64,000 nt of DNA from positions 96,001 to 160,000 of IMG/VR virus record IMGVR_UViG_3300045988_181536, one strand, 5' to 3'. Origin of the DNA: a virus. Position numbers and translations under genes: made by a program. A model generated the notes under the pieces. That model ran no database searches. It was given only the letters and a program-made list of their open reading frames with translations, and was not told the origin of the DNA. Each line of letters opens with the position of its first letter. Positions within the stretch are counted from its first letter, which is position 1. Of the stretch, positions 3,126 to 36,668 are shown one piece after another.

Positions 3126-5722
3126 ATATGATAATAAAATCTTTACATTTAAAAAACTTCGGACAACATTCCGATTTATTTTTGGATATTAAAGGTCCTG
3201 TAATAGGCATAGTGGGGCGTAATGGATCTGGTAAATCGACTATTGTTTCTGCTTTGCAATATGCATTTACCGGAGAAACTACCAATAATATTCAAACGTA
3301 TATTAAAAAAGGCGAAACTTCCGCCGAAGTAGAAGTTATATTTGAGAAAAACGGTAAAACAGGCGTTATTAGACGTGGCATTAATACCAGAACTACTACC
3401 AGAAGTCTGACCTATGGTGATCTTATTCAAAAGCCTATTACTAAAGCTAAAGAATTTGACGCCATGATGGATCAAATTTTGGGAGTAGATAAACAAAATA
3501 TCTTAAGCGCTATATTTATTGCGCAAGGAGAAATTGCCAATATTCTTAGTCCGAGACTTTCGGAACGACTGGGCTTGTTTGCCAAATTGTTAAATTTAAA
3601 TTTCTTGTCCAAAAGATCTTACGTAGTTGACCAGACTTTAAATAAACTGAGATCTTCCGTTACAGATGTTGGCAGTTTAAAAAATAATTTGGAAGTTAAA
3701 ATTGAAAATTTAAAATCCAAAAACGAAGCCTGGGAATCTGCAGTTCAGGAAGCAAATGCGAAATATGTTAGCGCAACCTTTGTCAAAGATATATGGGAAT
3801 CCGCATCAAATTATATTCATGCTCAAAATGAGCATACACGATGGGAAACTAAATATCAAGAAGCATTAGCAACTCTTGTTGAACAAAAAAATAAGCTAAC
3901 CTCTGTAGCTGCAATTGCAGGGGTAGATGAATCTACGCTTATTCCTAGTATTACGACACAAATCGAAAGCTTAGAAAGTCAATTTAACGAAATAAGCGCA
4001 TTTTTAAAAAATCAACAGCTGATTATTGACGCTTGGAATAATTTAGTTTCAGCCAGAGAAGAAAATAAAATATTTAACCAGCTAAAGACCACGGTGTTTG
4101 CTGACGTACCACCTGACGTTGTGGAAACGACTGTGAGTGAATTTGACGAGTATCAAAACAACACAACCAAATTTGAAGATTGTTGCCTAAAATCCGAAAA
4201 GTGGAAAAACAAACTGTCTGAACTTGAGCAAGATATAAACAAAGCAACTTCCAAGATACAACAGGCAGAGGCCGCTATTCCTCGATTGGATCAACAAAGA
4301 AATAACTTGTGTTCAGTTGTGGCACAGCTAGAAACGCTGGCGAAAACCAAGCAGAAGCTAAAAGACAAGGTTAACAAAGATACTGCCAGCTGTCCTGTAT
4401 GCGGTCTAAAACTGATGCTTGGACAAGAGGTTTGTGATGGAGATATTGAAAGCATAAAACAAAATATTCAAACGCTTCAAACATCCCAGATTCAGCCCTT
4501 GGAAATACAGTTAAAAGAGGCAACTTCTCTAAAAGTAAACAATGGAGCTATCTTAAGAGTTTCAGAGCAAGAATTTAAGCGTATAAAAGCGGACTATGAT
4601 GAGTGCCAAACGCTTATGGTAGAACTGAAGTCTAAAATAGATGCTTATAAAAACGACTGGCCGAAAATTACACAAACTATTTACACAGTAAAAGAAAAGT
4701 TGCCTGAATATAAAGTGTTGTGGGAAAAAAATCAACGCAACACTTTGCAGGATATGATTGATCAAGTAACCAAAACCTTACAATCATTTAATCTTGATGA
4801 AAACAACATAGATGTCGTCAAATTAAAAGAAATTGTCAGCGCAAAAGAACAAGAACTGTCTAAGCTAAGGTCTGAAATATCTAATAAAAAAGATTTGTTA
4901 AGTAGGGCCACTACGATTACAGGGTCTATTTCTGCGCAGGAACAAGAAATATCTAAAACTCAAGAGACTATATCGCAGCTTAATCAAAATCTAAAAAATC
5001 ATAAGCTAAAACAAATACGCGATACACTTGAGCAAGATATAAAAAATGCCTATATTCTGGAAACGTTTAACCACTTCGTAATGATTCCTGAGGTGCAAAC
5101 AATTGCATCTGCAGCTGTGGATGTATATAATCAGCTAAATGCTGAAAAACAAGTCATTGATAATTTGCAGCAGCAGATTGACAATGATAAAAACTTGATC
5201 AATAAACTAGAAGCTGAGAATGCCAAGGTTTATGGTGAAGTTGAAGAATTGGCACGCATAAAGCAACTCTTGCAACCTCAAGACGGCGTAATTAAAAACT
5301 ATATCAATTATTTGTTTAAGTCGATTTCCGGATATATCAGCGAGTATTTGGCGTATATGAATGCCAACTTTATCATTCAAATTGAAGATAGAGCGACTGA
5401 AGAAGACTTGTCATTTAAGTTCCAAAGAATCGATAAGCCTAACGACAAATATTGGTACCCAATGTATCAATTGTCAGGTGGTCAAAAGATTAAGTTGTCC
5501 ATAGCGTTTCAATTAGCTATTCAGAAAATTATTTGCCCTGATTTAGGATTCTTGGTTTTAGATGAACCTACTACTCATTTAGATGAAGAATCCATAAAAG
5601 CGCTTAGCGAACTCTTGGAAAATGTCGGAAATATGTTAACCGGACAAAACGGTCAAGTATGGATCATTGATCATAACCATATCATAGACAAAGCATTTAC
5701 GACTGCAATTAACCTAGATTAG
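3089..5722 (+). CDS. sbcC: SbcC/Rad50-family ATPase (T4 gp46-like)
   Basis: N-terminal Walker A 'GRNGSGKST'. Long coiled-coil middle with a zinc hook 'CPVCG'. C-terminal ABC signature 'LSGGQK' and Walker B 'LVLDEPTTHLD'. The true start is probably ATG 3128 ('MIIKSLHLKNF'). Confidence 0.85.
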   Translation: MRKRSHLHLGKINMIIKSLHLKNFGQHSDLFLDIKGPVIGIVGRNGSGKSTIVSALQYAFTGETTNNIQTYIKKGETSAEVEVIFEKNGKTGVIRRGINTRTTTRSLTYGDLIQKPITKAKEFDAMMDQILGVDKQNILSAIFIAQGEIANILSPRLSERLGLFAKLLNLNFLSKRSYVVDQTLNKLRSSVTDVGSLKNNLEVKIENLKSKNEAWESAVQEANAKYVSATFVKDIWESASNYIHAQNEHTRWETKYQEALATLVEQKNKLTSVAAIAGVDESTLIPSITTQIESLESQFNEISAFLKNQQLIIDAWNNLVSAREENKIFNQLKTTVFADVPPDVVETTVSEFDEYQNNTTKFEDCCLKSEKWKNKLSELEQDINKATSKIQQAEAAIPRLDQQRNNLCSVVAQLETLAKTKQKLKDKVNKDTASCPVCGLKLMLGQEVCDGDIESIKQNIQTLQTSQIQPLEIQLKEATSLKVNNGAILRVSEQEFKRIKADYDECQTLMVELKSKIDAYKNDWPKITQTIYTVKEKLPEYKVLWEKNQRNTLQDMIDQVTKTLQSFNLDENNIDVVKLKEIVSAKEQELSKLRSEISNKKDLLSRATTITGSISAQEQEISKTQETISQLNQNLKNHKLKQIRDTLEQDIKNAYILETFNHFVMIPEVQTIASAAVDVYNQLNAEKQVIDNLQQQIDNDKNLINKLEAENAKVYGEVEELARIKQLLQPQDGVIKNYINYLFKSISGYISEYLAYMNANFIIQIEDRATEEDLSFKFQRIDKPNDKYWYPMYQLSGGQKIKLSIAFQLAIQKIICPDLGFLVLDEPTTHLDEESIKALSELLENVGNMLTGQNGQVWIIDHNHIIDKAFTTAINLD

Positions 5723-8869: not shown

Positions 8870-9667
8870 ATGGAAATCGAAATTATAGATATTTCTAAAG
8901 CAAATGTGCCGAATGTGCGCTTTGACATAACTGCTTGGGAAAAAATTCAATTTATTGTGGACCATGAATCAAGGGAAATCGGATGGTTTGGAACAGTTGA
9001 TCATGATCCTAAAAGTAACACATATGTCGTAACAGACATATTTATTACCGAACAAAAACGTGATGGTGCTACATGCGACCAATCCGCAAAAGGAATAAAC
9101 GAACTGACTTCCGAAATTATTCGTGATCGATCATTAAGCTCCGAAGAAAAGCGGGATCGTTTAAACAAATTCAATTTTTGGGGACATTCTCATGTTAATA
9201 TGGGAGTAAGTCCTAGTAGTGAAGATATTGCCAATGCAAAAAGATTTGCCGGTAAGGACTTTTTGATTACCGGGATATTTAATAAAAAAGGAGACGTTCG
9301 CTTAGATTTTTGGGATTTTAAAAATAATCTACACTATGTGGAACTTCCTGTAAGAAAACGTTGGCATTTGTCTGATGAAACGGTTACAAAGATAATATCC
9401 GATATAAATACCAAAGTTAAAGAAATTACATTTGAGTCGTCTTATAGTTACGGTTCACCGCAACATTTACGTTCCGGCAGGGCTTTATTTGGAAGCCCAG
9501 CATCTGTTTGGAACAGCGAAAAACCATCTGTAAGTAACGAATGGATTGACCTTGACGGCGCTATACGCAGTAGCAATGCAAGTAGCAATAAGCTCGTAGA
9601 AAAAGTAGATAATAACGATTTCTTTTCTAAAACTCAAATCTCTCAAAAATCATGGATGCAGCATTAA
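8870..9667 (+). CDS. JAB/MPN (JAMM) metalloprotease-domain protein with a C-terminal extension
   Basis: Canonical JAMM motif 'HSHVNMGVSPSSED' (HxH-x7-S-x2-D) with upstream Glu residues. It overlaps the next gene by 16 nt, which suggests translational coupling. Confidence 0.75.
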   Translation: MEIEIIDISKANVPNVRFDITAWEKIQFIVDHESREIGWFGTVDHDPKSNTYVVTDIFITEQKRDGATCDQSAKGINELTSEIIRDRSLSSEEKRDRLNKFNFWGHSHVNMGVSPSSEDIANAKRFAGKDFLITGIFNKKGDVRLDFWDFKNNLHYVELPVRKRWHLSDETVTKIISDINTKVKEITFESSYSYGSPQHLRSGRALFGSPASVWNSEKPSVSNEWIDLDGAIRSSNASSNKLVEKVDNNDFFSKTQISQKSWMQH

Positions 9668-10368
9668 TTGATTTTGAACGGCAACATGCTTTCTTGGATC
9701 CAGCGAATTTTAACCAAAAAAATTATCGCATAGATATTATAGGAGCTGGAGCAACAGGATCTTATGTTGCATTTCAGTTAGCTAAAATGGGCATCCAAGG
9801 CATGCATATTTGGGATGCTGATGTCGTAGAAAGCCATAACCTTCCCAATCAGCTTTATGGACTTGAGGATGTTGGCAAACTTAAAGTAGAAGCCTTATCA
9901 GAGTATCTAAAAGAAATTGCAGGTATTGAAGTTGCAACACATAATGAATTTGTAAATTCGGAAACTGGAATGTTAGGGGATATTGTGTTTTTACTTACAG
10001 ACACAATGTCTTCTCGAAAAGAAATTTACGAATCGTGTTTAAAGTATTACGCAACGCAATTGTGTATTGAGACCAGACTCTCAGCAACCCAAGGAAGAGT
10101 TTATGCTTTTAACCCGACTGATCTAACGGATCAGATGCGGTGGGAAAAAACTTTATATTCCGATGAAGTCGCTGAAAAAAGCGAGTGTGGCACATCCATT
10201 ATGATGGGTGCTTCTTCTTCAATGATTGCGTCGATGGCCGTATGGCAATTTATAAAGTGGGTCACAAAACGTGACGATACCATTGATGAAAAATATCGAC
10301 TTGCAAATCCCGAATTTGAAGTGCTATTTTCCGTTTATCCGAATTATAACTTTCTTTTTAATCTTTAA
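9652..10368 (+). CDS. E1-like (ThiF/MoeB-family) adenylyltransferase
   Basis: Rossmann 'IDIIGAGATGSYVAFQLAKMG', followed by 'DADVVESHNLPNQLY' (ThiF 'D-D-V-x-x-SNL-RQ' equivalent) and a downstream conserved Cys. Confidence 0.75.
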   Translation: MDAALIDFERQHAFLDPANFNQKNYRIDIIGAGATGSYVAFQLAKMGIQGMHIWDADVVESHNLPNQLYGLEDVGKLKVEALSEYLKEIAGIEVATHNEFVNSETGMLGDIVFLLTDTMSSRKEIYESCLKYYATQLCIETRLSATQGRVYAFNPTDLTDQMRWEKTLYSDEVAEKSECGTSIMMGASSSMIASMAVWQFIKWVTKRDDTIDEKYRLANPEFEVLFSVYPNYNFLFNL

Positions 10369-14984: not shown

Positions 14985-15332
14985 GTGAAAAAGATTGATA
15001 TTTTAAAAAAAATTAAACAACAAACATCTAATGCTAATATACAAAAGCAAGGTGTAGTCGATAATTTACATACGCAAATCCGATTTAATCCATCTCAAAT
15101 TAAATCCAAGACCGTAACTGTAGAAGAAATTAAAAATACCCCTTTGTTAAAGGCGTATTATCAAGATACACTTGGACTTGATACAGATGACCAAATCATA
15201 GACATTGATATCTTTAAAGTCAAAAATGGTCGAACAATCATTTACTTCGGAATCAATTCCGAATTTTTGGACAAAAAAGGTATTAATGTGTTGACAACCC
15301 CAATCGGGGATGCTGTATTGATCGACACTTAA
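14985..15332 (+). CDS. hypothetical protein (AT-rich island)
   Basis: ORF with the same composition as the preceding giant ORF. Confidence 0.3.
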   Translation: MKKIDILKKIKQQTSNANIQKQGVVDNLHTQIRFNPSQIKSKTVTVEEIKNTPLLKAYYQDTLGLDTDDQIIDIDIFKVKNGRTIIYFGINSEFLDKKGINVLTTPIGDAVLIDT

Positions 15333-15335
15333 TAA

Positions 15336-15407
15336 TCCCAGGTAGCTCAGCGGTAGAGCGGACGACTGTTAATCGTTTGGTCGATGGTTCAATCCCATCT
15401 CTGGGAG
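15336..15407 (+). tRNA. tRNA-Asn (anticodon GTT)
   Basis: Cloverleaf read by hand. Acceptor 'TCCCAGG/TCTGGGA', D-arm 'GCTC-AGCGGTA-GAGC', anticodon stem 'GACGA/TCGTT' with loop 'CTGTTAA' (GTT), T-arm 'GATGG-TTCAATC-CCATC'. CCA is not encoded. Confidence 0.85.
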
Positions 15408-15409
15408 TA

Positions 15410-15722
15410 GATTTTTGTTCTTTTGCAATTTCTCGGACAATGGGCGTTTTAGGGATAGCGACCCTACCCCTGCCTATAGGGGAATGATAATAACTATCAG
15501 TGAAAACGCGAGTAGCTATCGTAGGAGGGACGTATGAATGTTCCCTTGAAATATGAAACTGATGCCCGATACCGGCGAGTCATGGCTTATCGATAGCGCC
15601 TTGGCTTCGTTTTGCGGTTGAGAATAGGCGTCCGAGCCCTTTTTTAGATCGACATAATTGTTTCCAAAAGTTGAGAGTTCTGATTCCCATAGCGCATAGA
15701 GTGTCTATGCGCTATTTTATTG
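15410..15722 (+). ncRNA. candidate structured non-coding RNA immediately 3' of the tRNA, ending in a terminator
   Basis: ~300 nt with no ORF and locally higher GC. Multiple hairpins: 'cccctgcctatagggg', 'gatagc...gctatc', 'ggcgagtcatggcttatcgatagcgcc'. It ends in a perfect 12-bp stem terminator. Confidence 0.3.
15689..15722 (+). terminator. intrinsic terminator (12-bp perfect stem 'atagcgcataga/tctatgcgctat' plus T-tract)
   Basis: Perfect inverted repeat with a 3-nt loop followed by 'ttttattg'. Confidence 0.6.
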
Positions 15723-15848
15723 TCCAAAAACAAGTTAAGATTCAAGGTTTAAAAGTCCTTTTCATTAAGGACTCCTTGAATCGCCTTGTTTTTACTTTAA
15801 TATTTATTCTTATTTTTTTTAGATATAACATTTAAACCCTTAGAAATT

Positions 15849-16073
15849 ATGTATAAAAGCTCACCATTTATCTTGAACCTTCAAGCCACATTAATTGATC
15901 CCTCTTTTTCCAAAGAAGCAAATATTGGAGAGTGTATCCGAATAATTGTAAACAAATGTAAAGAAAATGAAGAAATTGCTGAAGCTTGGGACTTTCTCCA
16001 AGATTATGCTAAAGCATTTAAAAAAGATAACCCTAACGCAAGTATTATGCTGGGAGATATATTTGAAATCTAA
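15849..16073 (+). CDS. hypothetical protein
   Basis: ORF only. Confidence 0.3.
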   Translation: MYKSSPFILNLQATLIDPSFSKEANIGECIRIIVNKCKENEEIAEAWDFLQDYAKAFKKDNPNASIMLGDIFEI

Positions 16074-18268: not shown

Positions 18269-20584
18269 TCAGAATACAAAGGCTTTCCTTATTTCATCCA
18301 TCAAGTTATTATGGTTTTCCCTAATGGTATTTGCGCATACCTGAAGATAAGCGGGATACCACTTAATGTTGGATGTGCCCTTTGATACAACATTTTTCAT
18401 CCAAGAAGTAAAGTATCCTATAAAAGATACGTGGTCAATTGCATTCTTGAAATCCTTAAAGCAATCGGCATATAAGCTGCCTTTTCCGGTGCCGAAGGTT
18501 TTATGTACAGCCAAAGCTACAGCTTCAAAGATTTGTTGAATATAGGGCGTTTTGTCACAATGACCTTCAGCCATTTCAGTAAACAATATTTGCAGAATAT
18601 TTGACAAATGGTCATAAATCGCAGCTTTATCTTTGCAACGGAAACCTAAGAAACGGGTATTTATAGGTCCTTGATAAAGCGGATGACCTTGATAATCCGG
18701 CAGATCATTCTCTACAGGCATATTGTTAATATACTCCACAACCTTTGGAGGCAGCTGATCTAAATTTCGCAGAAGACGCAGTGACTGCATGCTGTGAATT
18801 AAGCGCTTGGGGAACAACGCCCTGCTTTCATGACCGAATAAGTCGCAAATCCTAAGTTTCTCTTCCATAGGAATGCTGTTATATTTTTCATGTCTGCAAA
18901 GATAAGAGCACATGCTCCTATGCCACCAGTTAGGCATAACATCCGCCTTTACATTCGGATTTTTATTTAACTGATCCGCGTGTAAAATCTTTTGATAATC
19001 ATTTATAAATTCATCCAACAAAGACTTAGGTTCAGGAATAGATCCAGGGAACAAAGCGTCCTCTGCCATAATAACTTCAAGCGTAGGACGGAAACGCTGT
19101 ACTTTGCCTATGCTGCGAACATTTTTCCGAAGTTCTTTAAGTTCTTCAATGGCCTCATTTAAATCTATTTCATATTCGCTTTTATTTATTCCAGTCCAAG
19201 CATTTCCTGGCTGAATAGGAAATACCTTTTCAGGTTCTTGATTTAACCTTGCGGCCTTTTCTGCAATTGCCTTCTGCCTTTGTTCGAAAATGGTTATGCT
19301 GTAATCTATTGCTTCCTGAATGTCTTTAATATGGTTGCTGCGACGTTCCAGAGATTTAAAAAACCTAAACGGAGCCAAATAAACCGCATGCAAAGATTCG
19401 CTTAAAAATCTATAACTCATCACTGAAGAGAATTGTTTTTCAGGACGAATATATTTTCCAAGATAACGCTTGCTTATGGACTTAAGATCCTTTTGAAATC
19501 TTTCCCATTTGCGGCATTTATCCGCTTGAATTGTATCCTCTAAAGATTCTGTGCCCTGGGGCTTGGCTGGAGGAGACCATTTGAGGGCTTTTCTGTCCAC
19601 CTCCATATAGTCTATTATGGTTTTATTGGAATCATTTCCTGTATGTGCGCTGCAAGCAACTCTAAGTTCATTCAACATCTTCCAATAGCTTTTTTTGCAG
19701 AATCTGCCACCCATAGAATTGATAAGATTCTTAAGATAAAGAATATTGGGAAGATGATGCTGTATATCACCTTCTCGCTTACGTTCTAAATCAAGATAAA
19801 GCGAATGATAAAACTTGGTTCCGTGAAGCTTATTGGATATGAACTTGAAATTCATCATTACCGCCATATTCGGATTTGACGGGCAATAATCCAAAGACAT
19901 GTCTAAGAGATGAAGCGCATGTGTATCTGCCAAGGAGCAATGATTGTAATTGGCATATTGTATGCGCTTTAATTGAGGATTATAACCTGCAAAAAACTTA
20001 ACAGACTTAAGCCCCCTTTCTGGAACATTGCAACGACGATCAGATAAAGTCCAGCCGTAACCGTTGGTGGCTTTAGGGTTTTTTTCAGCCCATTCCTTCT
20101 CAAGCTGTGCTCTTTTCTGAGCACGTTCCTTTGCCTGTTGCTCCTTTTTTAAGGCTGCTTCTTTTTCCAGCTTTTCCTTTTTTAAAGCCTCTTCCTTGGC
20201 CTTTCTTCTCTCTGCAAGCATCTGTTGATAGATTGCTCTGCCTTTTGCAATAGCTTGTCTTCTACGCTCTCTGTCTTCTTCGGAGATATTTAAAGGCTTA
20301 GTGACTTTGTAACCCTTGGGGCGTCGAAAACGATATTTGTCCAACTTGGCTTTAGCTAATTCTAAAACTTTTTCTGAAACCGTATATTTCCTCTTGCCAG
20401 TTTTCGTGGCTCTATCTGCAGCCACTAAATTCATGCAACATTGTACTAAAGTTTTTTGATTTGCTTTAAGCTTATCTTGATCCAAACGTCCAGTTCCACC
20501 CCCGCGAGCTCTGTGCACCTTCTCGTTCAGGATGCTCTTAGACATATCGCAGTATTCTTCTGTATTACCAATAGTTGTTGCCAT
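18269..20584 (-). CDS. hypothetical 771-aa protein with a Lys/Glu coiled-coil segment; the only large minus-strand gene besides tnpB
   Basis: 'KAKEEALKKEKLEKEAALKKEQQAKERAQKRAQLEKE' coiled coil. No catalytic motif recognised. It is transcribed divergently from the 1.2-kb non-coding hub. Confidence 0.5.
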   Translation of the reverse strand: MATTIGNTEEYCDMSKSILNEKVHRARGGGTGRLDQDKLKANQKTLVQCCMNLVAADRATKTGKRKYTVSEKVLELAKAKLDKYRFRRPKGYKVTKPLNISEEDRERRRQAIAKGRAIYQQMLAERRKAKEEALKKEKLEKEAALKKEQQAKERAQKRAQLEKEWAEKNPKATNGYGWTLSDRRCNVPERGLKSVKFFAGYNPQLKRIQYANYNHCSLADTHALHLLDMSLDYCPSNPNMAVMMNFKFISNKLHGTKFYHSLYLDLERKREGDIQHHLPNILYLKNLINSMGGRFCKKSYWKMLNELRVACSAHTGNDSNKTIIDYMEVDRKALKWSPPAKPQGTESLEDTIQADKCRKWERFQKDLKSISKRYLGKYIRPEKQFSSVMSYRFLSESLHAVYLAPFRFFKSLERRSNHIKDIQEAIDYSITIFEQRQKAIAEKAARLNQEPEKVFPIQPGNAWTGINKSEYEIDLNEAIEELKELRKNVRSIGKVQRFRPTLEVIMAEDALFPGSIPEPKSLLDEFINDYQKILHADQLNKNPNVKADVMPNWWHRSMCSYLCRHEKYNSIPMEEKLRICDLFGHESRALFPKRLIHSMQSLRLLRNLDQLPPKVVEYINNMPVENDLPDYQGHPLYQGPINTRFLGFRCKDKAAIYDHLSNILQILFTEMAEGHCDKTPYIQQIFEAVALAVHKTFGTGKGSLYADCFKDFKNAIDHVSFIGYFTSWMKNVVSKGTSNIKWYPAYLQVCANTIRENHNNLMDEIRKAFVF

Positions 20585-20763
20585 AATCGTTGTTTTAAAT
20601 TTTTCGTTATCTTTTCAAATTTTTATTATCCAATCAAGAAAAATTTTCTTAAAACCTGTAAAATTTTTAATAAGTATATAAAAATTAATGAGTTAAAGTT
20701 AAAATTTTTCTGATTCATGGTTGTTTATGTTGAATTTTAGGATTAGTGTGCCTTATTGGAAGA

Positions 20764-20786
20764 ACCTATTACTATTTCTGAATAGC
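20764..20786 (+). repeat. 23-bp direct repeat copy 1 'acctattactatttctgaatagc' (internally palindromic ctatt...aatag)
   Basis: Exact 23-nt match with 21548-21570. Confidence 0.9.
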
Positions 20787-20791
20787 TAATC

Positions 20792-20912
20792 GGCCAACTT
20801 TTTGGTTAACATGGCGAGAGCGTAGCCCTCGCCTACACTCTGCATGTTAAATGTTAAAGATGCTTTAATGTTACAAATTAAAAGTCAAACATTAAAGATA
20901 AAAAAGTTGGCC
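20792..20912 (+). promoter_or_regulatory. structured element with a 12-bp long-range inverted repeat 'ggccaacttttt...aaaaagttggcc' enclosing nested palindromes (ttaacatg/catgttaa; ctttaatgtt/aacattaaag) and a GC hairpin 'ggcgagagcgtagccctcgcc'
   Basis: Read directly from the sequence. No ORF. Confidence 0.5.
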
Positions 20913-21547
20913 TTTACGAACCTCTCATGTTCATGCCATCGGTCAACGCCCGATGTCACTTTTTCCGTTACTAAGATCTTGCGCCCCTACGGGGCGCTGG
21001 CGGAACCCCTGTAACTCCGCAATTTTTACGAAAATTGGCGCGAAAAACTGTTTAAATTCTCCAAAATTACATAGGAAAAAATGTGTCATTGCTAAAAATT
21101 GCAGTGCATTTGCCCGCTGTAAATAGACTAAAAAATAGCCAAATGATCAAAACGGAAATCTGGAACAATAGCTATATGCAGGAAAAAATGGGCTTAGAAT
21201 CTTTTTTAAATTTAAAGGTATATAAATATATAGCCTAAAAGCTAAAAATCATTTTTAAGGGCGTTTATTCGCGTTTTTTAATTTTATCGCTGGGTCAGAA
21301 CTAAATCCCTAAAAGCTGTATTAAGGGAGATTGCGTTATATCAAAAGTCGCCATGATAGCTATTATAAAAACGCTAAGTCTATTATACTGTGAAAATAAG
21401 CCCTAATTTCCCTTCCCCTGCACCCCTACCTTTGAATGAATATATTTTTATCTTCGAATTAACATTCTCGATAAAAAGCTTTTTATATTCTATCTGCATA
21501 AATGCATCTAGCATATAAAAAGAAAAATTATTAACATAATTTTTTCT

Positions 21548-21570
21548 ACCTATTACTATTTCTGAATAGC
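21548..21570 (+). repeat. 23-bp direct repeat copy 2
   Basis: Exact match with 20764-20786. Confidence 0.9.
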
Positions 21571-21572
21571 AA

Positions 21573-21628
21573 AATAGTATTACCTTCGGAACTGCGTTCC
21601 TGCGGTAATACTATTTATTTTCTTTTTT
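21573..21628 (+). terminator. strong intrinsic terminator or 3' end of a long non-coding RNA
   Basis: 12-bp perfect stem 'aatagtattacc/ggtaatactatt' with an inner 'ggaac/gttcc' helix, followed by 'tattttctttttt'. Confidence 0.65.
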
Positions 21629-21811
21629 AAAGGTGTTAAAATTTAAAGAGAAGAATCTTAAAAGAATTAGAGAAAAAATAACCAAAATTTAAAATGACAA
21701 TAAAACACCATACAATAATCCTAAATTAAAAAGCGATTATTGCATATCCATTAAGTAAAATTTTTTAAATAAAAAAAAAACAAACCATGTGTAAGTGTCA
21801 ATAGAAATTTC

Positions 21812-23217: not shown

Positions 23218-26200
23218 ATGGAAGAACAAGTAAAAACAAAAACCACGGATAATCCGGATCCGTTTACGAATGAGTTTTCCCGACAGATTTGGGAAGTAAC
23301 CTATAAAACGCAAAATGAAAAGAGTATTACAGATACGTGGAAACGTGTGGCAAATGCTGTAGCCAATGTAGAAAAGGATGAAGAATCCAAAAGATTTTAT
23401 GCTGAGGCTTTTTATGAGATTTTAAAAGATTTTAAGTTTATACCCGGAGGTCGTATATTGGCCAATGCAGGGGGTAGTTGTAAGAATGTCTCTCTCGTCA
23501 ACTGTTATCTCTCACCTGCTCCCAAATACGACATGGATTCCGTTGAAGGAATTATGGAGGTATTAAAGAACCAGGTTTTAACTTTAAAATCTGAAGGAGG
23601 CTGGGGTTTAAATTGTAGTTTTATTCGTCCCAGAGGTTCTTATATAGAAGGCATAGGTGCCAGAACCCCCGGTGCTGTAAAGTATTTGGAGCTGTTTGAT
23701 AAAAGTTCCGAAATTATTACGGAAGGTCCAGGAGAGTATTACATAGAGAATAAAGAAAAAACGCCTAAGAATGAAAAGAAGAAAATTCGCAAGGGTGCAA
23801 TGATGCTTTGTTTAAGCTGCTGGCATCCTGATATATACGAATTTATTACTGCCAAACAAAAGCCGTTTCATCTAACTAAAATGAATATGTCCGTAAATGT
23901 TACCAATGCTTTTATGGATATTTTAAATAGAGTTAACGAGCTTGTTAAAAACAATGCTTCGCAGGAAGAAATCGATGCTGTTGATTTTTGGCAATTGAGA
24001 TTTCCTGATACGGCTTTTGAAAAGTATAAATCCGAATGGGATGGAGACTTGGATAAATGGGAGAAAAAAGGTTATCCTGTAAAAGTTTATCGTACAGTAA
24101 GGGCTACTGATCTATGGGAAGCCTTAATGCAGTCTACCAGCAATCGTTCGGAGCCTGGAGTTTTATTTCTCGATAGGGCAAATGAGACACATTGCGCAAA
24201 TTATATCCCTGAGTTGCAATTAGTTGGGACAAATCCTTGTCTTACTGGAGATACCAAAGTTGCTGTTGCTGACGGGCGTACAAATGTGACTATTAAAGAG
24301 TTGGCCGAAGCTGGCAGAGATGTTCCGGTGTTAGCTTGTGATAATGCTGGCAATATTGTTACAAAGTTAATGCGTAATCCTCGTATTACAGGCTATAATA
24401 AAGATATTTATCGAGTGACTTTAGATGATGGTAATCATATTGATTGCACGTCTAATCATAAGTTTAGATTGTCTGATGGAACATATAAAGAGGTAAAAGA
24501 TTTATCAACAGGTGTAGCTTTGCACACAAATACGTTAAGTGTAGAAGAGTATAAACGTTATTTAGTGCAGGAAGTTTTAAATACGGAAATTACCCCTAAT
24601 CTTCAGCTTGATTCCGTACAACAACTGTGTGAAGAAGCAAAGTCTCAGGGTTATGAGGTAAAAATAGATAATAACATAGTTTTGGTTAAGAGGGTTTGTG
24701 AGGAATGTGGAAAAGAACATTTTGTTCCATTTACTCATCGCGAAATTGCGTTTTGTTCTCTGGAATGTTTAAATACCCATTTGAATAAAGAAAAAATCGC
24801 TGCCAAAACCACAAATACTGATTTAGATGTAATATCTGCTGAGGATTGGCCTGTAAGGTTTGTTTCGTCTATTGAATATATAGGCAAACAAGATGTCTAT
24901 ACCGGTACAGTTGATGATGTGCATAATTATTGCGTTGGGATGTTTGAAACTGTGAATGAACATGGACATCCAAAATTTTATATACTTAATAATCAGCAGT
25001 GCGGAGAGCAGGTTTTATACAGCGGAGGATGCTGCAACTTAGGATCCATCAATCTTACGGCATTTATAGAGTACGATGAAACTAAACATGCCGCCGTTTT
25101 TAACTTTCAGAAGTTCTCTGATATTGTTCCTTATTGCGTAAGATTCTTGGATAATGTCATAGACATTGCCAATCTGCCTTTGGAAGAATATAAATATATG
25201 GCTGAAAGTTATCGAAGAATCGGGCTTGGTATTACAGGCATAGGCTCTGCTTTAATGATGTTGGGTCTAAAATACGATTCTAAGGAAGCTAAAGACTTTT
25301 TAACTAAAGTTTTTGATGTTTATAATTTCTTAGGGATAAGGGCAAGTATCGCTTTAGCTAAATGTAAAGGTGCGTTTAAAGGATGCAATCCTGCAAAACA
25401 TGCTGATAATATAAAATATACGTTTAGACATTTACCGAAGTATATATTGGATGCTTTGCAAAAAGAATTGTTAGAAACTAACGGCATCCGCAATTCAGCC
25501 TTGTTCTCAGTCCAACCGACAGGCAATACAGGGTGTCTAGCCAATAATATTTCAGGCGGTGTGGAACCTGTGTTTCAGTTAGAATACTACAGAATTGTTG
25601 GAGTGCCGATTGTTCCTGAAAGCATAAAAGATAAATGTCCTAGGTTCTGGGAGGGGGATTTTACTCCGAACAATTATTTCAAAGAAGTTAAATACGCAGA
25701 TTTTACTTACTTGTCTTACGTAACTGAAGCTGGCCAAGAATATCAGATACATAAAGATAGAGGTCTGTGTGAAAAAGTAAAAATTCGAGATTATGCTTAC
25801 CAATGGATCTTGGATCATAATTTAGAATATCCACAGGAAGTTTTTACAACAGCTATGCAACTACCTGTTGAATCTCATTTGGAAATTCTGAAATTAGTAT
25901 CTGCACATTTGGATTCCGCTGTAAGTAAAACGATAAATGTTGGCAAGGATTACCCTTATGAACAGTTTAAGAATGTTTATTTAGATGCATATAATAGCGG
26001 AGTAATAAAAGGAGTTACGACTTATCGTGAGGGTTCTATGAGTGCAGTATTGCAAACTACGGATTCGAAAGATGACGTAAATCCTACATCTACATCGATT
26101 ATTCATCCTACTATTACTGCTGAGAAACGTCCTGATATATTGCCGTGTAGAGTATTTTTTAGAACGGTAAAAGGAATATCTTATTACTTTATTGTAAGTT

Positions 26201-26664
26201 TCTTGGAAAATAGTCCGTTTGAGATGTTTATTGACATAAATGAAGATAACATTTTTGACGAGGATGGAGAATGGGTTGAGCGCCGTCGCATTATACCCAA
26301 GACTGTAAAGGAAGGAACTTTAAAGAAGTTGGGTAAGGCTACGTTCGAGTTTGTATCTAAAGATGAGAAATTTATATTTAAAATTGTAAAAGCCAATGAG
26401 TCTTCAGATAAAGCCACATTAACAGCCCTTGCTCGTTTGGTGGCTTTGAATTTGCAGTCCGGTGTATCAGTGAAAGAGATAATACATCAGCTATCTAAAA
26501 CCGAAGGGGATTTTACTTCAATTGTGAAAGCAATTAACAAAGTATTGTCTCAGTGTGCTGGTAAAGTTGATCTTGGAGAAACATGCCCTGTTTGCGGAGG
26601 TAAAGTGTTACGTGAAGAGGGATGTAAAAAATGCTATGCATGTGGATGGTCTGCATGCGGCTAA
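23218..26664 (+). CDS. ribonucleotide reductase catalytic subunit, probably class II (NrdJ-like, monomeric) with a C-terminal zinc ribbon, interrupted by an intein at the NPC active-site motif
   Basis: 'SEGGWGLNCSFIRPRGSYIEG' loop. 'EPGVLFLDRAN...VGTNP|C' then an intein. The extein resumes 'CGEQVLYSGGCCNLGSINL'. C-terminal 'CPVCGG...CKKCYACGWSACG'. No NrdB is adjacent. Confidence 0.8.
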   Translation: MEEQVKTKTTDNPDPFTNEFSRQIWEVTYKTQNEKSITDTWKRVANAVANVEKDEESKRFYAEAFYEILKDFKFIPGGRILANAGGSCKNVSLVNCYLSPAPKYDMDSVEGIMEVLKNQVLTLKSEGGWGLNCSFIRPRGSYIEGIGARTPGAVKYLELFDKSSEIITEGPGEYYIENKEKTPKNEKKKIRKGAMMLCLSCWHPDIYEFITAKQKPFHLTKMNMSVNVTNAFMDILNRVNELVKNNASQEEIDAVDFWQLRFPDTAFEKYKSEWDGDLDKWEKKGYPVKVYRTVRATDLWEALMQSTSNRSEPGVLFLDRANETHCANYIPELQLVGTNPCLTGDTKVAVADGRTNVTIKELAEAGRDVPVLACDNAGNIVTKLMRNPRITGYNKDIYRVTLDDGNHIDCTSNHKFRLSDGTYKEVKDLSTGVALHTNTLSVEEYKRYLVQEVLNTEITPNLQLDSVQQLCEEAKSQGYEVKIDNNIVLVKRVCEECGKEHFVPFTHREIAFCSLECLNTHLNKEKIAAKTTNTDLDVISAEDWPVRFVSSIEYIGKQDVYTGTVDDVHNYCVGMFETVNEHGHPKFYILNNQQCGEQVLYSGGCCNLGSINLTAFIEYDETKHAAVFNFQKFSDIVPYCVRFLDNVIDIANLPLEEYKYMAESYRRIGLGITGIGSALMMLGLKYDSKEAKDFLTKVFDVYNFLGIRASIALAKCKGAFKGCNPAKHADNIKYTFRHLPKYILDALQKELLETNGIRNSALFSVQPTGNTGCLANNISGGVEPVFQLEYYRIVGVPIVPESIKDKCPRFWEGDFTPNNYFKEVKYADFTYLSYVTEAGQEYQIHKDRGLCEKVKIRDYAYQWILDHNLEYPQEVFTTAMQLPVESHLEILKLVSAHLDSAVSKTINVGKDYPYEQFKNVYLDAYNSGVIKGVTTYREGSMSAVLQTTDSKDDVNPTSTSIIHPTITAEKRPDILPCRVFFRTVKGISYYFIVSFLENSPFEMFIDINEDNIFDEDGEWVERRRIIPKTVKEGTLKKLGKATFEFVSKDEKFIFKIVKANESSDKATLTALARLVALNLQSGVSVKEIIHQLSKTEGDFTSIVKAINKVLSQCAGKVDLGETCPVCGGKVLREEGCKKCYACGWSACG
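24238..24999 (+). mobile_element. intein (~254 aa) inserted in the RNR NPC|GE motif; contains a Cys-rich insert, possibly a degenerate endonuclease
   Basis: N-terminal splice block A 'CLTGDTKVAV', block B 'TSNH', block F 'VYTGTVDDVHNY'. The apparent C-terminal junction is '...ILNNQQ|CGEQ', where the terminal Gln is unusual. The insert is 'VCEECGKEHFVPFTHREIAFCSLEC'. Confidence 0.65.
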
Positions 26665-34338: not shown

Positions 34339-34653
34339 ATGCTTCGTATTTGTCCATGTGATGGCATAATCATAATGGATAAGGCTTTATTAGAGTTAGT
34401 GAAACAAAAAAAGCTTACTTATCATAAGGCATTGACGGACGAAAAATATAGGAAATATGTCTATTGGTATGAGGTATATTCTCTATCAACAGATGAAGAT
34501 AGCCAATCAGACTGTGCTCGAGAATCGAGATTTGACAATTTAAAATCAAAATTTGCTCGACGAAAGCTGTCACGGTTATATCAAGCTATAGAATTTCGAC
34601 GACGAACGCGCAAACCTTGTGATCAAAATAAATCTTCAAAGCGTACATCATAA
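34339..34653 (+). CDS. hypothetical basic protein; its 3' end overlaps the first tandem-repeat copy
   Basis: ORF only. Confidence 0.3.
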   Translation: MLRICPCDGIIIMDKALLELVKQKKLTYHKALTDEKYRKYVYWYEVYSLSTDEDSQSDCARESRFDNLKSKFARRKLSRLYQAIEFRRRTRKPCDQNKSSKRTS

Positions 34654-34865
34654 TCGGCACAAGACAAATACCACCTATCTCTTCAGGTAGGTGCCCTCAC
34701 TAAAAAACCAGAACTTGACATTCTTGGACATCGGGAGGCCACGCCACTAATAACGTACATCATAATCGGCACAAGACAAATACCACCTATCTCTTCAGGT
34801 AGATGCCCTCACTAAAAAACCAGAACTTGACATTCTTGGACATCGGGAGGCCACGCCACTAATAA
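34642..34865 (+). repeat. perfect tandem duplication, 2 x 112 bp (one mismatch: ggtaggtg versus ggtagatg)
   Basis: Unit 'cgtacatcataatcggcacaagacaaataccacctatctcttcaggtaggtgccctcactaaaaaaccagaacttgacattcttggacatcgggaggccacgccactaataa' at 34642-34753 and 34754-34865. It contains a hairpin 'cacctat...taggtg' and a TTGACA hexamer. Confidence 0.9.
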
Positions 34866-34892
34866 CGAAAGGTTTATATACAGCAAAAATAC

Positions 34893-36668
34893 ATGAATGA
34901 AACTATAACTGAAACACATAAAACCTTATCGAATCCGCCACCTTCGACAAATGGTAAAACTTCGATTTTTGAGAAGAGACGAATCTTGGCATCTCTAGAT
35001 AAAACGCATCGCGATTTTAATACCTATATGCGTAATCTGCAGAAGGTATTGGAGGTGTTTGAGTATCCTTCGTTAAGGCCTAATCAAGTTGAACCTGTAA
35101 TCCATTTGTTAAAAGGTCAAGATTTGCTGCTTGTATCTAGTACATCTTCTGGCAAATCTTTTTGCTATATTGCCCCATCCTTAGCGATGGGGTATAAAAC
35201 CATAGTGTTTTTTCCTTTGGTAGCGTTAATTCAAGACCAATGGAAAGAGTTGATGCAGAGAGGAGTGCGTGTAGGCGTAGTATCTTCGGGAGTATCATTA
35301 ACAGAAGCGAATAAAGCCATGGCCGAATGGGAGCAGGGTGCTTTGGACTTTTTGTTTGTGGCTCCGGAAAGATTGCAAAATAAAAAATTTTTAGAGCTAA
35401 TGGATAGAGTTCCCCCTGATTTTGTTGTGGTGGATGAAATTCATTGCGCTTATGAGCAGGCTACCTCGTTTCGATCTTCGTATAAAAAGATAGCGCCATT
35501 TGTGGAGCGGGTTTGTCCAAAACTTTTTCTTGGTCAAACAGCTACGATGTCGGATGATGTAGAAAAGGCTGTTAGAGAAATTTATAATCTAAAGGACACA
35601 CCTAAGTTAGTTAAGTCTTATCCAAGACCGAATTTGCATTTTCGTTCAATAAAAATTGAATCGGACAAGGCTGATGATTGGGTATTTCGGGAACTTAATA
35701 AATCTCCATTGGTTCCTAGTATCGTTTATTGTTCTACAGTTAATATGGTATCCGATCTTTACAGGATTTATGGTCCTGCAATTGTTGGGGGTTCCATGAT
35801 GTACACAGGACAAATGTCTCCATCCCAACGTAAAGCCAATCAAACGAATTTTCTTAACGGTAATATTCGTGTGGCTTTTGCTACCAATGCTTTTGGAATG
35901 GGCATTAACAAACCTGATATTGGCAGAATTATTTTACGCTCGTTTCCAGGAAGCCTGGAGGAATTAATTCAAGAGTTTGGAAGAGGAGGTCGCAACGGTT
36001 GTGACTGTGATTGTGTTTTGTTGGCGGATTATCGTACATTAAATACGCAAAACTTTTTTATCGATACAGCATTTCCTGACATTCGTTATTACTATAAATT
36101 TTTTGACGCTTTAAAACAATTTCAAAATCCCAGTACGCACATGGTTACTGCTACATTAAAAGAGTTGGCAGACAAGATTGGTATTCATCCTATGTGTATT
36201 GGGGGCATCAGTGAGGCGTTGAAAGGTTTTAAGATAATTGATCGCGCTGAACCTACTACAGAGACTCGAATTAGATTTCTTGATTGTCCTGACGATACGT
36301 CTTCGGGTGTAGGTAAAAAATTTGCATTGTATAAAGAGAAAATTGATTTAATAGGTATTGATAATACTGATCTTTCTTGCTTTGAAGTTGATTTAGAATA
36401 TCTTGCAGAAGAAGTTGGAGCATCTAATGTAAATACGATTAAAACTAATTTAACTAAATTTCAAAATTTAGGCTGGATAGATGTAAAAATGCCTTCTCGT
36501 AGTCAACCAATTAAGATTATTGGAGATATGTCATTATTTAGTGAAGAAAAAATTAAGCAAGAGCGTGAAAAAAAGAAATTAAAGCTTGAAGAGGTAAAAA
36601 ATTTTGTTGATATTCCTGATCCATATAAGGCAGAGTATCTAGATAAATACTTTGAAACACATAGCTAA
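34893..36668 (+). CDS. RecQ-family DNA helicase
   Basis: 'SGKSFCYIAPSL' (RecQ GKSLCYQ[IL]PAL), 'FFPLVALIQDQ', 'FLFVAPERL' (RecQ LLYVAPERL), DExH 'VVVDEIHCAYEQATSFRSSY', 'FATNAFGMGINKPDI'. Confidence 0.8.
   Translation: MNETITETHKTLSNPPPSTNGKTSIFEKRRILASLDKTHRDFNTYMRNLQKVLEVFEYPSLRPNQVEPVIHLLKGQDLLLVSSTSSGKSFCYIAPSLAMGYKTIVFFPLVALIQDQWKELMQRGVRVGVVSSGVSLTEANKAMAEWEQGALDFLFVAPERLQNKKFLELMDRVPPDFVVVDEIHCAYEQATSFRSSYKKIAPFVERVCPKLFLGQTATMSDDVEKAVREIYNLKDTPKLVKSYPRPNLHFRSIKIESDKADDWVFRELNKSPLVPSIVYCSTVNMVSDLYRIYGPAIVGGSMMYTGQMSPSQRKANQTNFLNGNIRVAFATNAFGMGINKPDIGRIILRSFPGSLEELIQEFGRGGRNGCDCDCVLLADYRTLNTQNFFIDTAFPDIRYYYKFFDALKQFQNPSTHMVTATLKELADKIGIHPMCIGGISEALKGFKIIDRAEPTTETRIRFLDCPDDTSSGVGKKFALYKEKIDLIGIDNTDLSCFEVDLEYLAEEVGASNVNTIKTNLTKFQNLGWIDVKMPSRSQPIKIIGDMSLFSEEKIKQEREKKKLKLEEVKNFVDIPDPYKAEYLDKYFETHS

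Follow-up and report, generated by a model that had tools for sequence, protein, structure and literature searches.

The locus and its conserved unit

The window analysed here is a 64,000-nt stretch of viral DNA (positions 96,001 to 160,000 of IMG/VR record IMGVR_UViG_3300045988_181536), and the element in question is a candidate structured non-coding RNA (ncRNA) on its + strand, directly behind a tRNA-Asn gene. The window represents the replication module of a phage, whose genes all lie on the + strand and include SbcC-like, helicase, PolB-like, UvsX-like, primase, DnaB and ribonucleotide reductase (RNR) genes, the last with an intein. The upstream operon runs from ThiF through a 1305-aa protein and a ubiquitin-like open reading frame (ORF) to the tRNA-Asn and the RNA. 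Downstream, on the same strand, a 74-aa ORF, a 183-aa ORF, the DnaB helicase, the primase and the RNR are found, with a putative loader among them. The tRNA starts 3 nt past the stop codon (15332) of a 115-aa ORF (14985-15332), and the intergenic region in full, counting the tRNA and two terminators, measures 516 nt. The tRNA gene forms a cloverleaf that scores well above the Rfam gathering score of 29 bits and has a readable anticodon, and no CCA is encoded in it.

The segment behind the tRNA stands out by its composition. The GC (guanine plus cytosine) content was 43-49% in 100-nt segments over 15300-15700, compared with 16-33% in the flanks. The core (15432-15636) reached 49.8%, against 35.2% for the whole window; this corresponds to the 99.9th percentile of 200-nt segments, and the core was the sole non-coding member among those ranked highest. 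The region holds just mechanical ORFs of 33-54 aa. Indels of 1 nt and 22 nt in relatives break these small frames, so that no ORF is conserved, and they were ruled out as coding genes. An earlier note on this DNA, made from the letters alone, had described a tRNA-Asn at 15336 followed by a GC-enriched, ORF-free segment, and both descriptions held.

Two types of the RNA, A (as in the window) and B, occur among related phages. The following features were assigned in the window; locus L145, used for comparison, is a type A relative whose helicase protein is 64% identical to that of the window.

15336-15407, +: tRNA-Asn (anticodon GTT), found by ARAGORN and Rfam (RF00005, 65 bits); a variant with compensatory stem changes occurs in relatives
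15408-15431, +: U-rich 24-nt spacer from the tRNA to P1, conserved in type A (95.8% identical to L145)
15432-15636, +: core structured RNA of type A, 205 nt, 62 modelled bp, from the helix model and the match of a type-B-only model
15432-38 / 15630-36, +: P1
15442-47 / 15562-67, +: P2
15450-66, +: hp1, 5-bp stem with the 7-nt loop AUAGCGA
15467-82, +: hp2
15485-99, +: hp3
15497-15506, +: unpaired motif UCAGUGAAAA
15511-13 / 15558-60, +: P3
15516-19 / 15551-55, +: P4
15522-25 / 15545-48, +: P4b
15527-44, +: P5
15571-15618, +: P6, a long hairpin
15637-15645, +: CCC and then a U6 run, directly past the P1 3' strand; similarity to L145 ends at ~15649
15646-15688, +: variable linker; ~22 nt (~15645-15666) are missing in L001, L002 and L023
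15689-15722, +: intrinsic terminator 1, a 12-bp perfect stem (15689-15715) with loop GTG, then TTTTATT; -16.9 kcal/mol, z = -5.6
15726-15798, +: intrinsic terminator 2, a hairpin of three tiers (15726-15793) between an A-run and a T-run; -27.8 kcal/mol, z = -7.6

The conserved unit is the core of ~205 nt, or ~240 nt with the 5' spacer, which is closed by the 7-bp helix P1 and followed by the U-run. P1 encloses a multi-helix core in which P2 in turn encloses hp1, hp2, hp3 and the P3-P4-P5 arm, while P6 stands separately after P2. RNAalifold had offered another structure for type A, with the 5' spacer paired to the 3' region. It was dropped in favour of P1, because a G-to-T change in L059 breaks the spacer pairing and type B lacks such a spacer, having just 8 variable nt in its place. 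Three unpaired elements are conserved: the hp1 loop RUAGCNA, the motif UCAGUSAAAA (GUSAAAA) and the pair UAUCG..GCUA. The hp1 loop is a U-turn-like 7-nt loop with an invariant UAGC after the U; GCUA in the P3/P4 junction is likewise invariant, and the two could base-pair. The U6 run is probably the 3' end of the RNA or a weak termination point. At the position matching the CCC-U6 run, type B has UUUACUUUU.

The comparison with L145 showed the core to be the best-conserved part of the locus. Nucleotide identity to the window was 95.3% in the core and 95.8% in the 24-nt spacer, exceeding even that of the tRNA (84.7%). It was far lower in the flanking genes: the 1305-aa gene had 54.5%, the small ORF 62.9%, the 183-aa gene 63.7% and the helicase 67.3%. 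The similarity stops a few bases past the U-run.

Both downstream hairpins are stable, GC-containing and followed by a U-tract, as it is expected for intrinsic terminators. The 12-bp perfect stem with its T-tract is thus as the earlier note described it, and the second nested hairpin is also real but longer than had been claimed. Terminator 2 is common to types A and B, and its inner stem differs between them by compensatory changes (AGUCCUU/AAGGACU vs AGUCCCA/UGGGACU). In L145 both terminators are replaced by two wholly different hairpins, while the core is kept at 95% identity. Together with the 22-nt indel in the linker, this delimits the unit from 15408 or 15432 to ~15645 and marks the terminators as replaceable parts of the operon end. 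The terminator had been taken for the end of a ~300-nt structured RNA, which does not agree with the exchange in L145. A structured ncRNA itself is very probable on comparative grounds, at a size of ~205-240 nt.

Riboswitches classically consist of a folded domain with a strong terminator behind it, a layout also seen here. With the replication genes downstream on the same strand, and with the 7-mer AUAGCGC in both the P6 loop and the 5' arm of terminator 1, the region could be read as a cis-acting leader, riboswitch or attenuator in which the sensing of a ligand or tRNA sets the read-through into the replication operon. The comparisons leave little room for it. No fixed expression platform is seen, as the same core precedes two unrelated terminators in L145. 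The 22-nt indel separates the core from terminator 1 in some relatives, and type B has ~240 nt extra at that place, including another element with its own terminator. Furthermore, L003 alters the AUAGCGC without a matching change in the terminator, and two tandem terminators and an AT-rich, promoter-like spacer stand before the next ORF. No riboswitch or T-box of Rfam was matched. A regulatory leader is regarded as decidedly unlikely, and the core RNA does not appear to control downstream genes.

Two types with a shared architecture

Some 25 related metagenomic phage contigs carry either type A or type B. They were found in metagenomes alone, as six IMG/VR contigs (103-173 kb, one sample) and in Logan, ENA and JGI assemblies, several of which are labelled human gut. 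Type A comprises the window and the loci L001-L004, L023, L024, L026, L059, L069, L070 and L145; type B comprises L005, L006, L042-L048 and L062. Type B is a different ORF-free, GC-rich sequence in the identical slot after the same tRNA, and neither BLAST, Smith-Waterman alignment against shuffles nor nhmmer detected any alignable similarity between the types. Their helices and motifs compare as follows, in 5' to 3' order.

P1, 7 bp: CUCGGAC/GUCCGAG in type A, GCCAGAG/CUCUGGC in type B
P2, both types: GGCGU with A[U/C]GCC far downstream
hp1, both types: 5-bp stem, 7-nt loop RUAGCNA, with hp2 directly adjacent
hp3: extra hairpin in type A alone
Unpaired UCAGUSAAAA, then P3 (AGU/ACU), both types
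P4, both types: CU(U)AU/AUA(A)G, flanked by UAUCG..GCUA
P5, both types: capped hairpin, with a GNRA loop in two type B variants
P6, then the P1 3' strand, then the U-run, both types: P6 is a long hairpin past the P2 3' strand

Covariation in type A was evaluated on 8 distinct sequences against the 62-pair model. Pairing was kept in 99.2% of the cells (4 of 494 were unpaired), compared with ~40% when partners were slid. Double compensatory changes were found at three pairs, one each in hp1, P6 and P1, and three further changes were wobble-compatible. The hp1 closing pair changes from U:A to C:G in L059 and L069, and among the members it occurs as U:A, C:G or A:U; a P6 pair changes from G:C to A:U in L003 and L024. 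An additional change in P4b, from U:G to C:G, was seen in L145. Type B has its own compensatory changes, G:C to A:U in hp2 and U:A to C:G in P5. Between the types, 10 of the 28 pairs in the six one-to-one helices differ on both sides and none is broken; in P2, P3 and the unpaired motifs the sequence itself is conserved. The earlier note had proposed covariation across related phages as a check. Compensatory and wobble-compatible substitutions were seen, with conservation far above that of the neighbouring genes.

Eight of the 62 modelled pairs are G:U, which would be A.C mismatches on the opposite strand. The helices can therefore form on the + strand only, and belong to an RNA rather than to DNA cruciforms. 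This bears on a replication-origin element, in which a transcript or a cruciform would serve as primer, R-loop RNA or site for an origin protein. The position is suggestive of an origin, since the element lies directly upstream of the putative loader, DnaB helicase and primase genes and a very AT-rich stretch (15794-15848) follows. On the other hand, G:U pairs and wobble-type substitutions indicate RNA helices of one strand, and transcripts should not extend into the AT-rich DNA, as the U-run and both terminators would stop them first. In addition, no iterons or direct repeats are present, and a lineage with a 71% identical helicase keeps the replication genes without the element. An origin is considered very improbable.

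In order to compare the types reciprocally, two covariance models were used, R1 from type B sequences only and R2 from type A only. With filters off, R1 was run on both strands of the whole window, a search space of 128 kb. Its top match was 15436-15632 on the + strand, over the full length of the model, with 22.4 bits against 16.1 for the runner-up. On 13 kb of decoy DNA with 50-66% GC it did not exceed 7.8 bits, so base composition is not the explanation. In 641 kb comprising 94 loci that hold all three shared motifs, R1 recovered the true relatives alone, one of type B (235 bits) and six of type A (17-22 bits); none of the ~87 chance loci in this motif-matched set reached E ≤ 1. In the opposite direction, R2 ranked four type B cores first in 81 kb, with boundaries equal to the P1-to-P1 limits that had been drawn independently. 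The same slot, helix order, motifs and reciprocal recognition by the models thus point, weakly, to one family. A common origin or architecture of types A and B is supported but not proven.

Presence and absence of the element follow those of the tRNA. Every copy stands behind tRNA-Asn, and no other context was found. In a third lineage (L040, L041, L147 and L148; helicase 71% identical) neither tRNA nor RNA is present, and a terminator hairpin alone follows the homologous small ORF; both are likewise missing from the lineage of L146 (helicase 34% identity). The tRNA and the RNA are thus gained or lost together. The RNA type does not follow the helicase: phages with 100% and 64% identity have type A, those with 82% have type B, and those with 71% and 34% have neither. 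The tRNA-Asn itself comes in two variants, whose acceptor, anticodon and T stems differ by compensatory changes. L059 (3140-3215), L069 and L145 (6990-7061) have a type-B-like tRNA-Asn joined to a type A RNA, with the recombination junction at the boundary of the two. Based on the discordance with the helicase phylogeny and on these mosaics, it was concluded that the module is exchanged by recombination. Part of the near-identity among type A copies is then recent shared ancestry and not selection.

Joint travel of this kind would also be expected of a non-functional passenger, that is, a 3' trailer from a GC-richer donor or the decayed remnant of a mobile or integrating element, with helices that are fortuitous. 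The GC content is foreign to the phage, TnpB/IS605 insertions occur nearby in relatives, and the thermodynamic z-scores are unremarkable. A passenger would hardly be better conserved than the rest of the locus, tRNA included, nor would its substitutions be biased to compensatory or wobble-compatible ones or its architecture be kept by two versions unrelated in sequence. The TnpB end in L025 is unrelated to the element, no att-like repeat of the tRNA end exists, and no other genomic context was seen, with 185,579 species genomes free of a motif-bearing copy. Passenger status is unlikely. The tRNA-linked integration scar that the earlier note had allowed for fails on similar grounds. The 22-mer of the tRNA 3' end occurs once in the 64 kb at up to 3 mismatches, the context is constant, and no integrase was found among the neighbouring proteins scanned.

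In 50,697 GenBank phage records, BLAST with the region matched the tRNA part alone, and the DnaB helicase had no tblastn match. Scans for the three motifs in IMG/VR, JGI metagenomes and the species genomes, filtered with the covariance model, left only relatives of the same phages; they revealed no third type and no bacterial copy. IMG/VR matches of the hairpin pattern from other samples were attributed to chance.

Type B loci contain a further GC-rich element that is devoid of ORFs and has a strong terminator of its own (GCCGUCGCAGGG...CCCUGCGGCGGC); it is located in L005 at 5185-5340 and present also in L006 and L042-L046. It comes after the core RNA and an AT-rich spacer, and ahead of the shared long hairpin. 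No Rfam family matched it, and a 68-aa minus-strand ORF within it was ruled out, as L044 has a 1-nt indel there. This element may represent a small RNA in its own right.

Known RNA families and neighbouring genes

Rfam 15 was searched with the whole 64 kb at gathering thresholds and with 15200-16000 at E ≤ 10, and the tRNA was the only match. The same held for the A and B slots at permissive E-values. Since nothing else was matched, membership of GOLLD or ROOL is unsupported. The earlier note had seen their look in this region, and the likeness is real in so far as the RNA is phage-encoded, multi-helical and adjacent to a tRNA; GOLLD and ROOL are often found near tRNA islands in phages and prophages, and have complex folds with no known protein partner or function (PMC12286853). 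The dimensions do not fit. Lengths above 800 nt are found in many GOLLD RNAs, and the linker of the solved ROOL, at nucleotides 414-464 (PMC12286853), already lies past the full length of the core RNA. Families 2-4 times larger than the ~205-nt core and without a covariance-model match leave almost no probability for a GOLLD or ROOL member or a miniature of one.

The closest layout was found in phage T4, where rnaD (119 nt) begins after a gap of 24 nt behind tRNA-Arg, and rnaC (139 nt) after a further 6 nt, all on one strand. In T4, rnaC and rnaD are known as the species 1 and species 2 stable RNAs of the tRNA cluster. They are excised from the tRNA precursor transcript, and to our knowledge their function has gone unexplained for ~50 years. 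Like the core RNA, rnaC and rnaD are small structured phage RNAs that come directly after a tRNA on its strand, and like it they are absent from Rfam. Homology was rejected, as R1 and R2 gave no more than 3.6 bits for the rnaC/rnaD interval (L149 2445-2708). The element also differs in being one molecule of ~205 nt, in which a closing helix is combined with two domains of several helices each, in accompanying a single tRNA-Asn, and in residing in an unrelated low-GC gut phage lineage. The function of rnaC and rnaD is still unknown (PMC9697503).

Two other kinds of mobile or retro-element RNA were considered. A retron was not indicated, as Pfam and PHROG scans of the flanking ORFs gave no reverse transcriptase. 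IS605-type TnpB genes (OrfB_IS605 / Cas12f1-like) are inserted in two relatives, in L025 (7225-8199) with the 1307-aa ORF on one side and the ubiquitin-like ORF on the other, and in L146 (9528-10742) next to the helicase. A relic of an IS200/IS605 TnpB omega-RNA was rejected because every copy of the element follows tRNA-Asn and because the TnpB of L025 is upstream of the 115-aa ORF, with an unrelated 3' end.

PDB and Pfam searches gave no RNA-binding clue for the flanking proteins. The 115-aa ORF showed weak, repeated PDB similarity to single-ubiquitin chains (E ~0.03-0.07), and a ThiF/E1-like ORF (9652-10368; Pfam ThiF 1.6e-27) belongs to the same operon. The phage may possess both a ubiquitin-like protein and an E1-like enzyme. 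The large subunit of RNR (23218-26664) is interrupted by an intein (Pfam Intein_splicing 1.2e-10); in the L147 lineage, genes of the NrdD type, likewise with an intein, take the place of the window-type RNR. A near-perfect tandem duplication of ~118 nt at 34643-34878 starts within the 3' end of the ORF 34339-34653, occupies the GC-rich gap before a helicase-like ORF (34893-36668) and has no stable fold (z = +0.2). No ORF of 100 aa or more is present in the 1.2 kb at 20585-21811 (GC 0.30), a stretch bordered on one side by the sole minus-strand gene in the vicinity (18269-20584) and on the other by that of the primase. It could accommodate small genes, promoters or an origin.

Interpretation

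The element is best explained as a structured + strand ncRNA of ~205 nt that would be released as the tail of a tRNA operon and act in trans; we put the probability of this at about 0.62. In kind, it would be a tRNA-linked phage stable RNA, organised like the RNAs of the T4 tRNA cluster and not homologous to them. The family appears to be a credible new one with two subtypes, from an unsampled lineage of ~170-kb gut phages. These diverged subtypes are probably swapped among related phages as a cassette that is always tied to the tRNA.

The RNA would be transcribed as the tail of the upstream operon, as the distance between the ORF stop at 15332 and the tRNA leaves no room for a promoter. RNase P and the enzymes of 3' processing are drawn to a tRNA by its fold, and their action would free a downstream RNA with a defined 5' end; T4 tRNA precursors and eukaryotic tRNA-like processing signals are examples of such tRNA-guided maturation. 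At this locus it is predicted from the gene order, the missing CCA and the lack of promoter room at 15332-15336. The 5' end of the RNA would be produced by host processing of the tRNA 3' end, with cleavage expected after the discriminator base since no CCA is encoded. The suggestion of a processing leader in the earlier note is retained to this extent, namely that tRNA 3' processing probably makes the RNA 5' end. The 3' end would be set at the U-run past P1, the two strong terminators acting as back-up. In the least certain step, the folded molecule would act in trans, e.g. as a scaffold or decoy for a protein or RNA during infection.

Several observations weigh against this interpretation. 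The folding energy is modest: the minimum free energy of 15408-15725 gave z = -2.4, mostly due to the terminator, and the core was no more stable than its shuffled counterparts (type A, z = -0.7; type B, z = -1.2). The hairpin density noted earlier is consequently real as to the hairpins and weak thermodynamically. The scores across types are low as well, R2 giving the type B cores 11.7-14.5 bits against 10.9 for the best background, and the E-values of the models are roughly calibrated. Independent covariation events are few within each type, two of the substitutions disrupt pairs of the model (P4, U-to-C; P6, G-to-A), and the helix skeleton of type B was sketched with an eye to type A. Lastly, the near-identity of many type A copies comes partly from recent mosaic blocks, as in L024, where a neighbouring ORF is 99% identical. 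The weak thermodynamics and cross-type scores and the small number of independent covariation events hold the confidence at ~0.6.

A bolder form of the proposal is that the core RNA represents a kind of compact phage RNA not recognised so far, which has its own activity and is swapped with the tRNA as a selectable cassette. We regard this as quite unlikely. Such an activity might be that of a decoy or ribozyme tied to tRNA biology, e.g. one that counters host defences targeting tRNA, or it might consist in the formation of an RNA-only oligomer through palindromic P6 loops. ROOL, GOLLD and some RNAs of less than 200 nt self-assemble into RNA-only oligomers. GOLLD and ROOL form homo-oligomeric cages; for the core RNA the palindromic P6 loops are a weak hint of comparable behaviour.

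The P6 apical loop carries an 8-nt palindrome, UAUCGAUA in type A (15588-15595 of the window). The type B version, GUAAUUAC (L043 ~4570-4577), is found in four of the five variants, an extra U disrupting it in L005. At the P3/P4 junction, a U-to-C change in L059, L069 and L145 yields the palindrome GUAGCUAC. These palindromes may be a kissing-loop dimerisation signal, which is a weak lead: an 8-nt palindrome is held by ~50% of shuffled cores, palindromes arise readily at hairpin tips, and the one in P6 is not kept in L005.

If the RNA were merely a stable by-product, the finding would be an ordinary one. Otherwise, it offers a compact and tractable case among the structured RNAs adjacent to phage tRNAs, a class that is still functionally unexplained (T4 rnaC/rnaD, GOLLD, ROOL), and it does so in a lineage of ~170-kb gut phages that is abundant yet uncultivated. 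The two types are natural 'alleles' with the same architecture and unrelated helix sequences, sister lineages without tRNA and RNA are available, and the boundaries are sharp. At ~205 nt the molecule is small enough for chemical probing, cryo-electron microscopy and reporter work. That it occurs strictly together with tRNA-Asn suggests a connection with the processing of tRNA or with host defences directed at tRNA.

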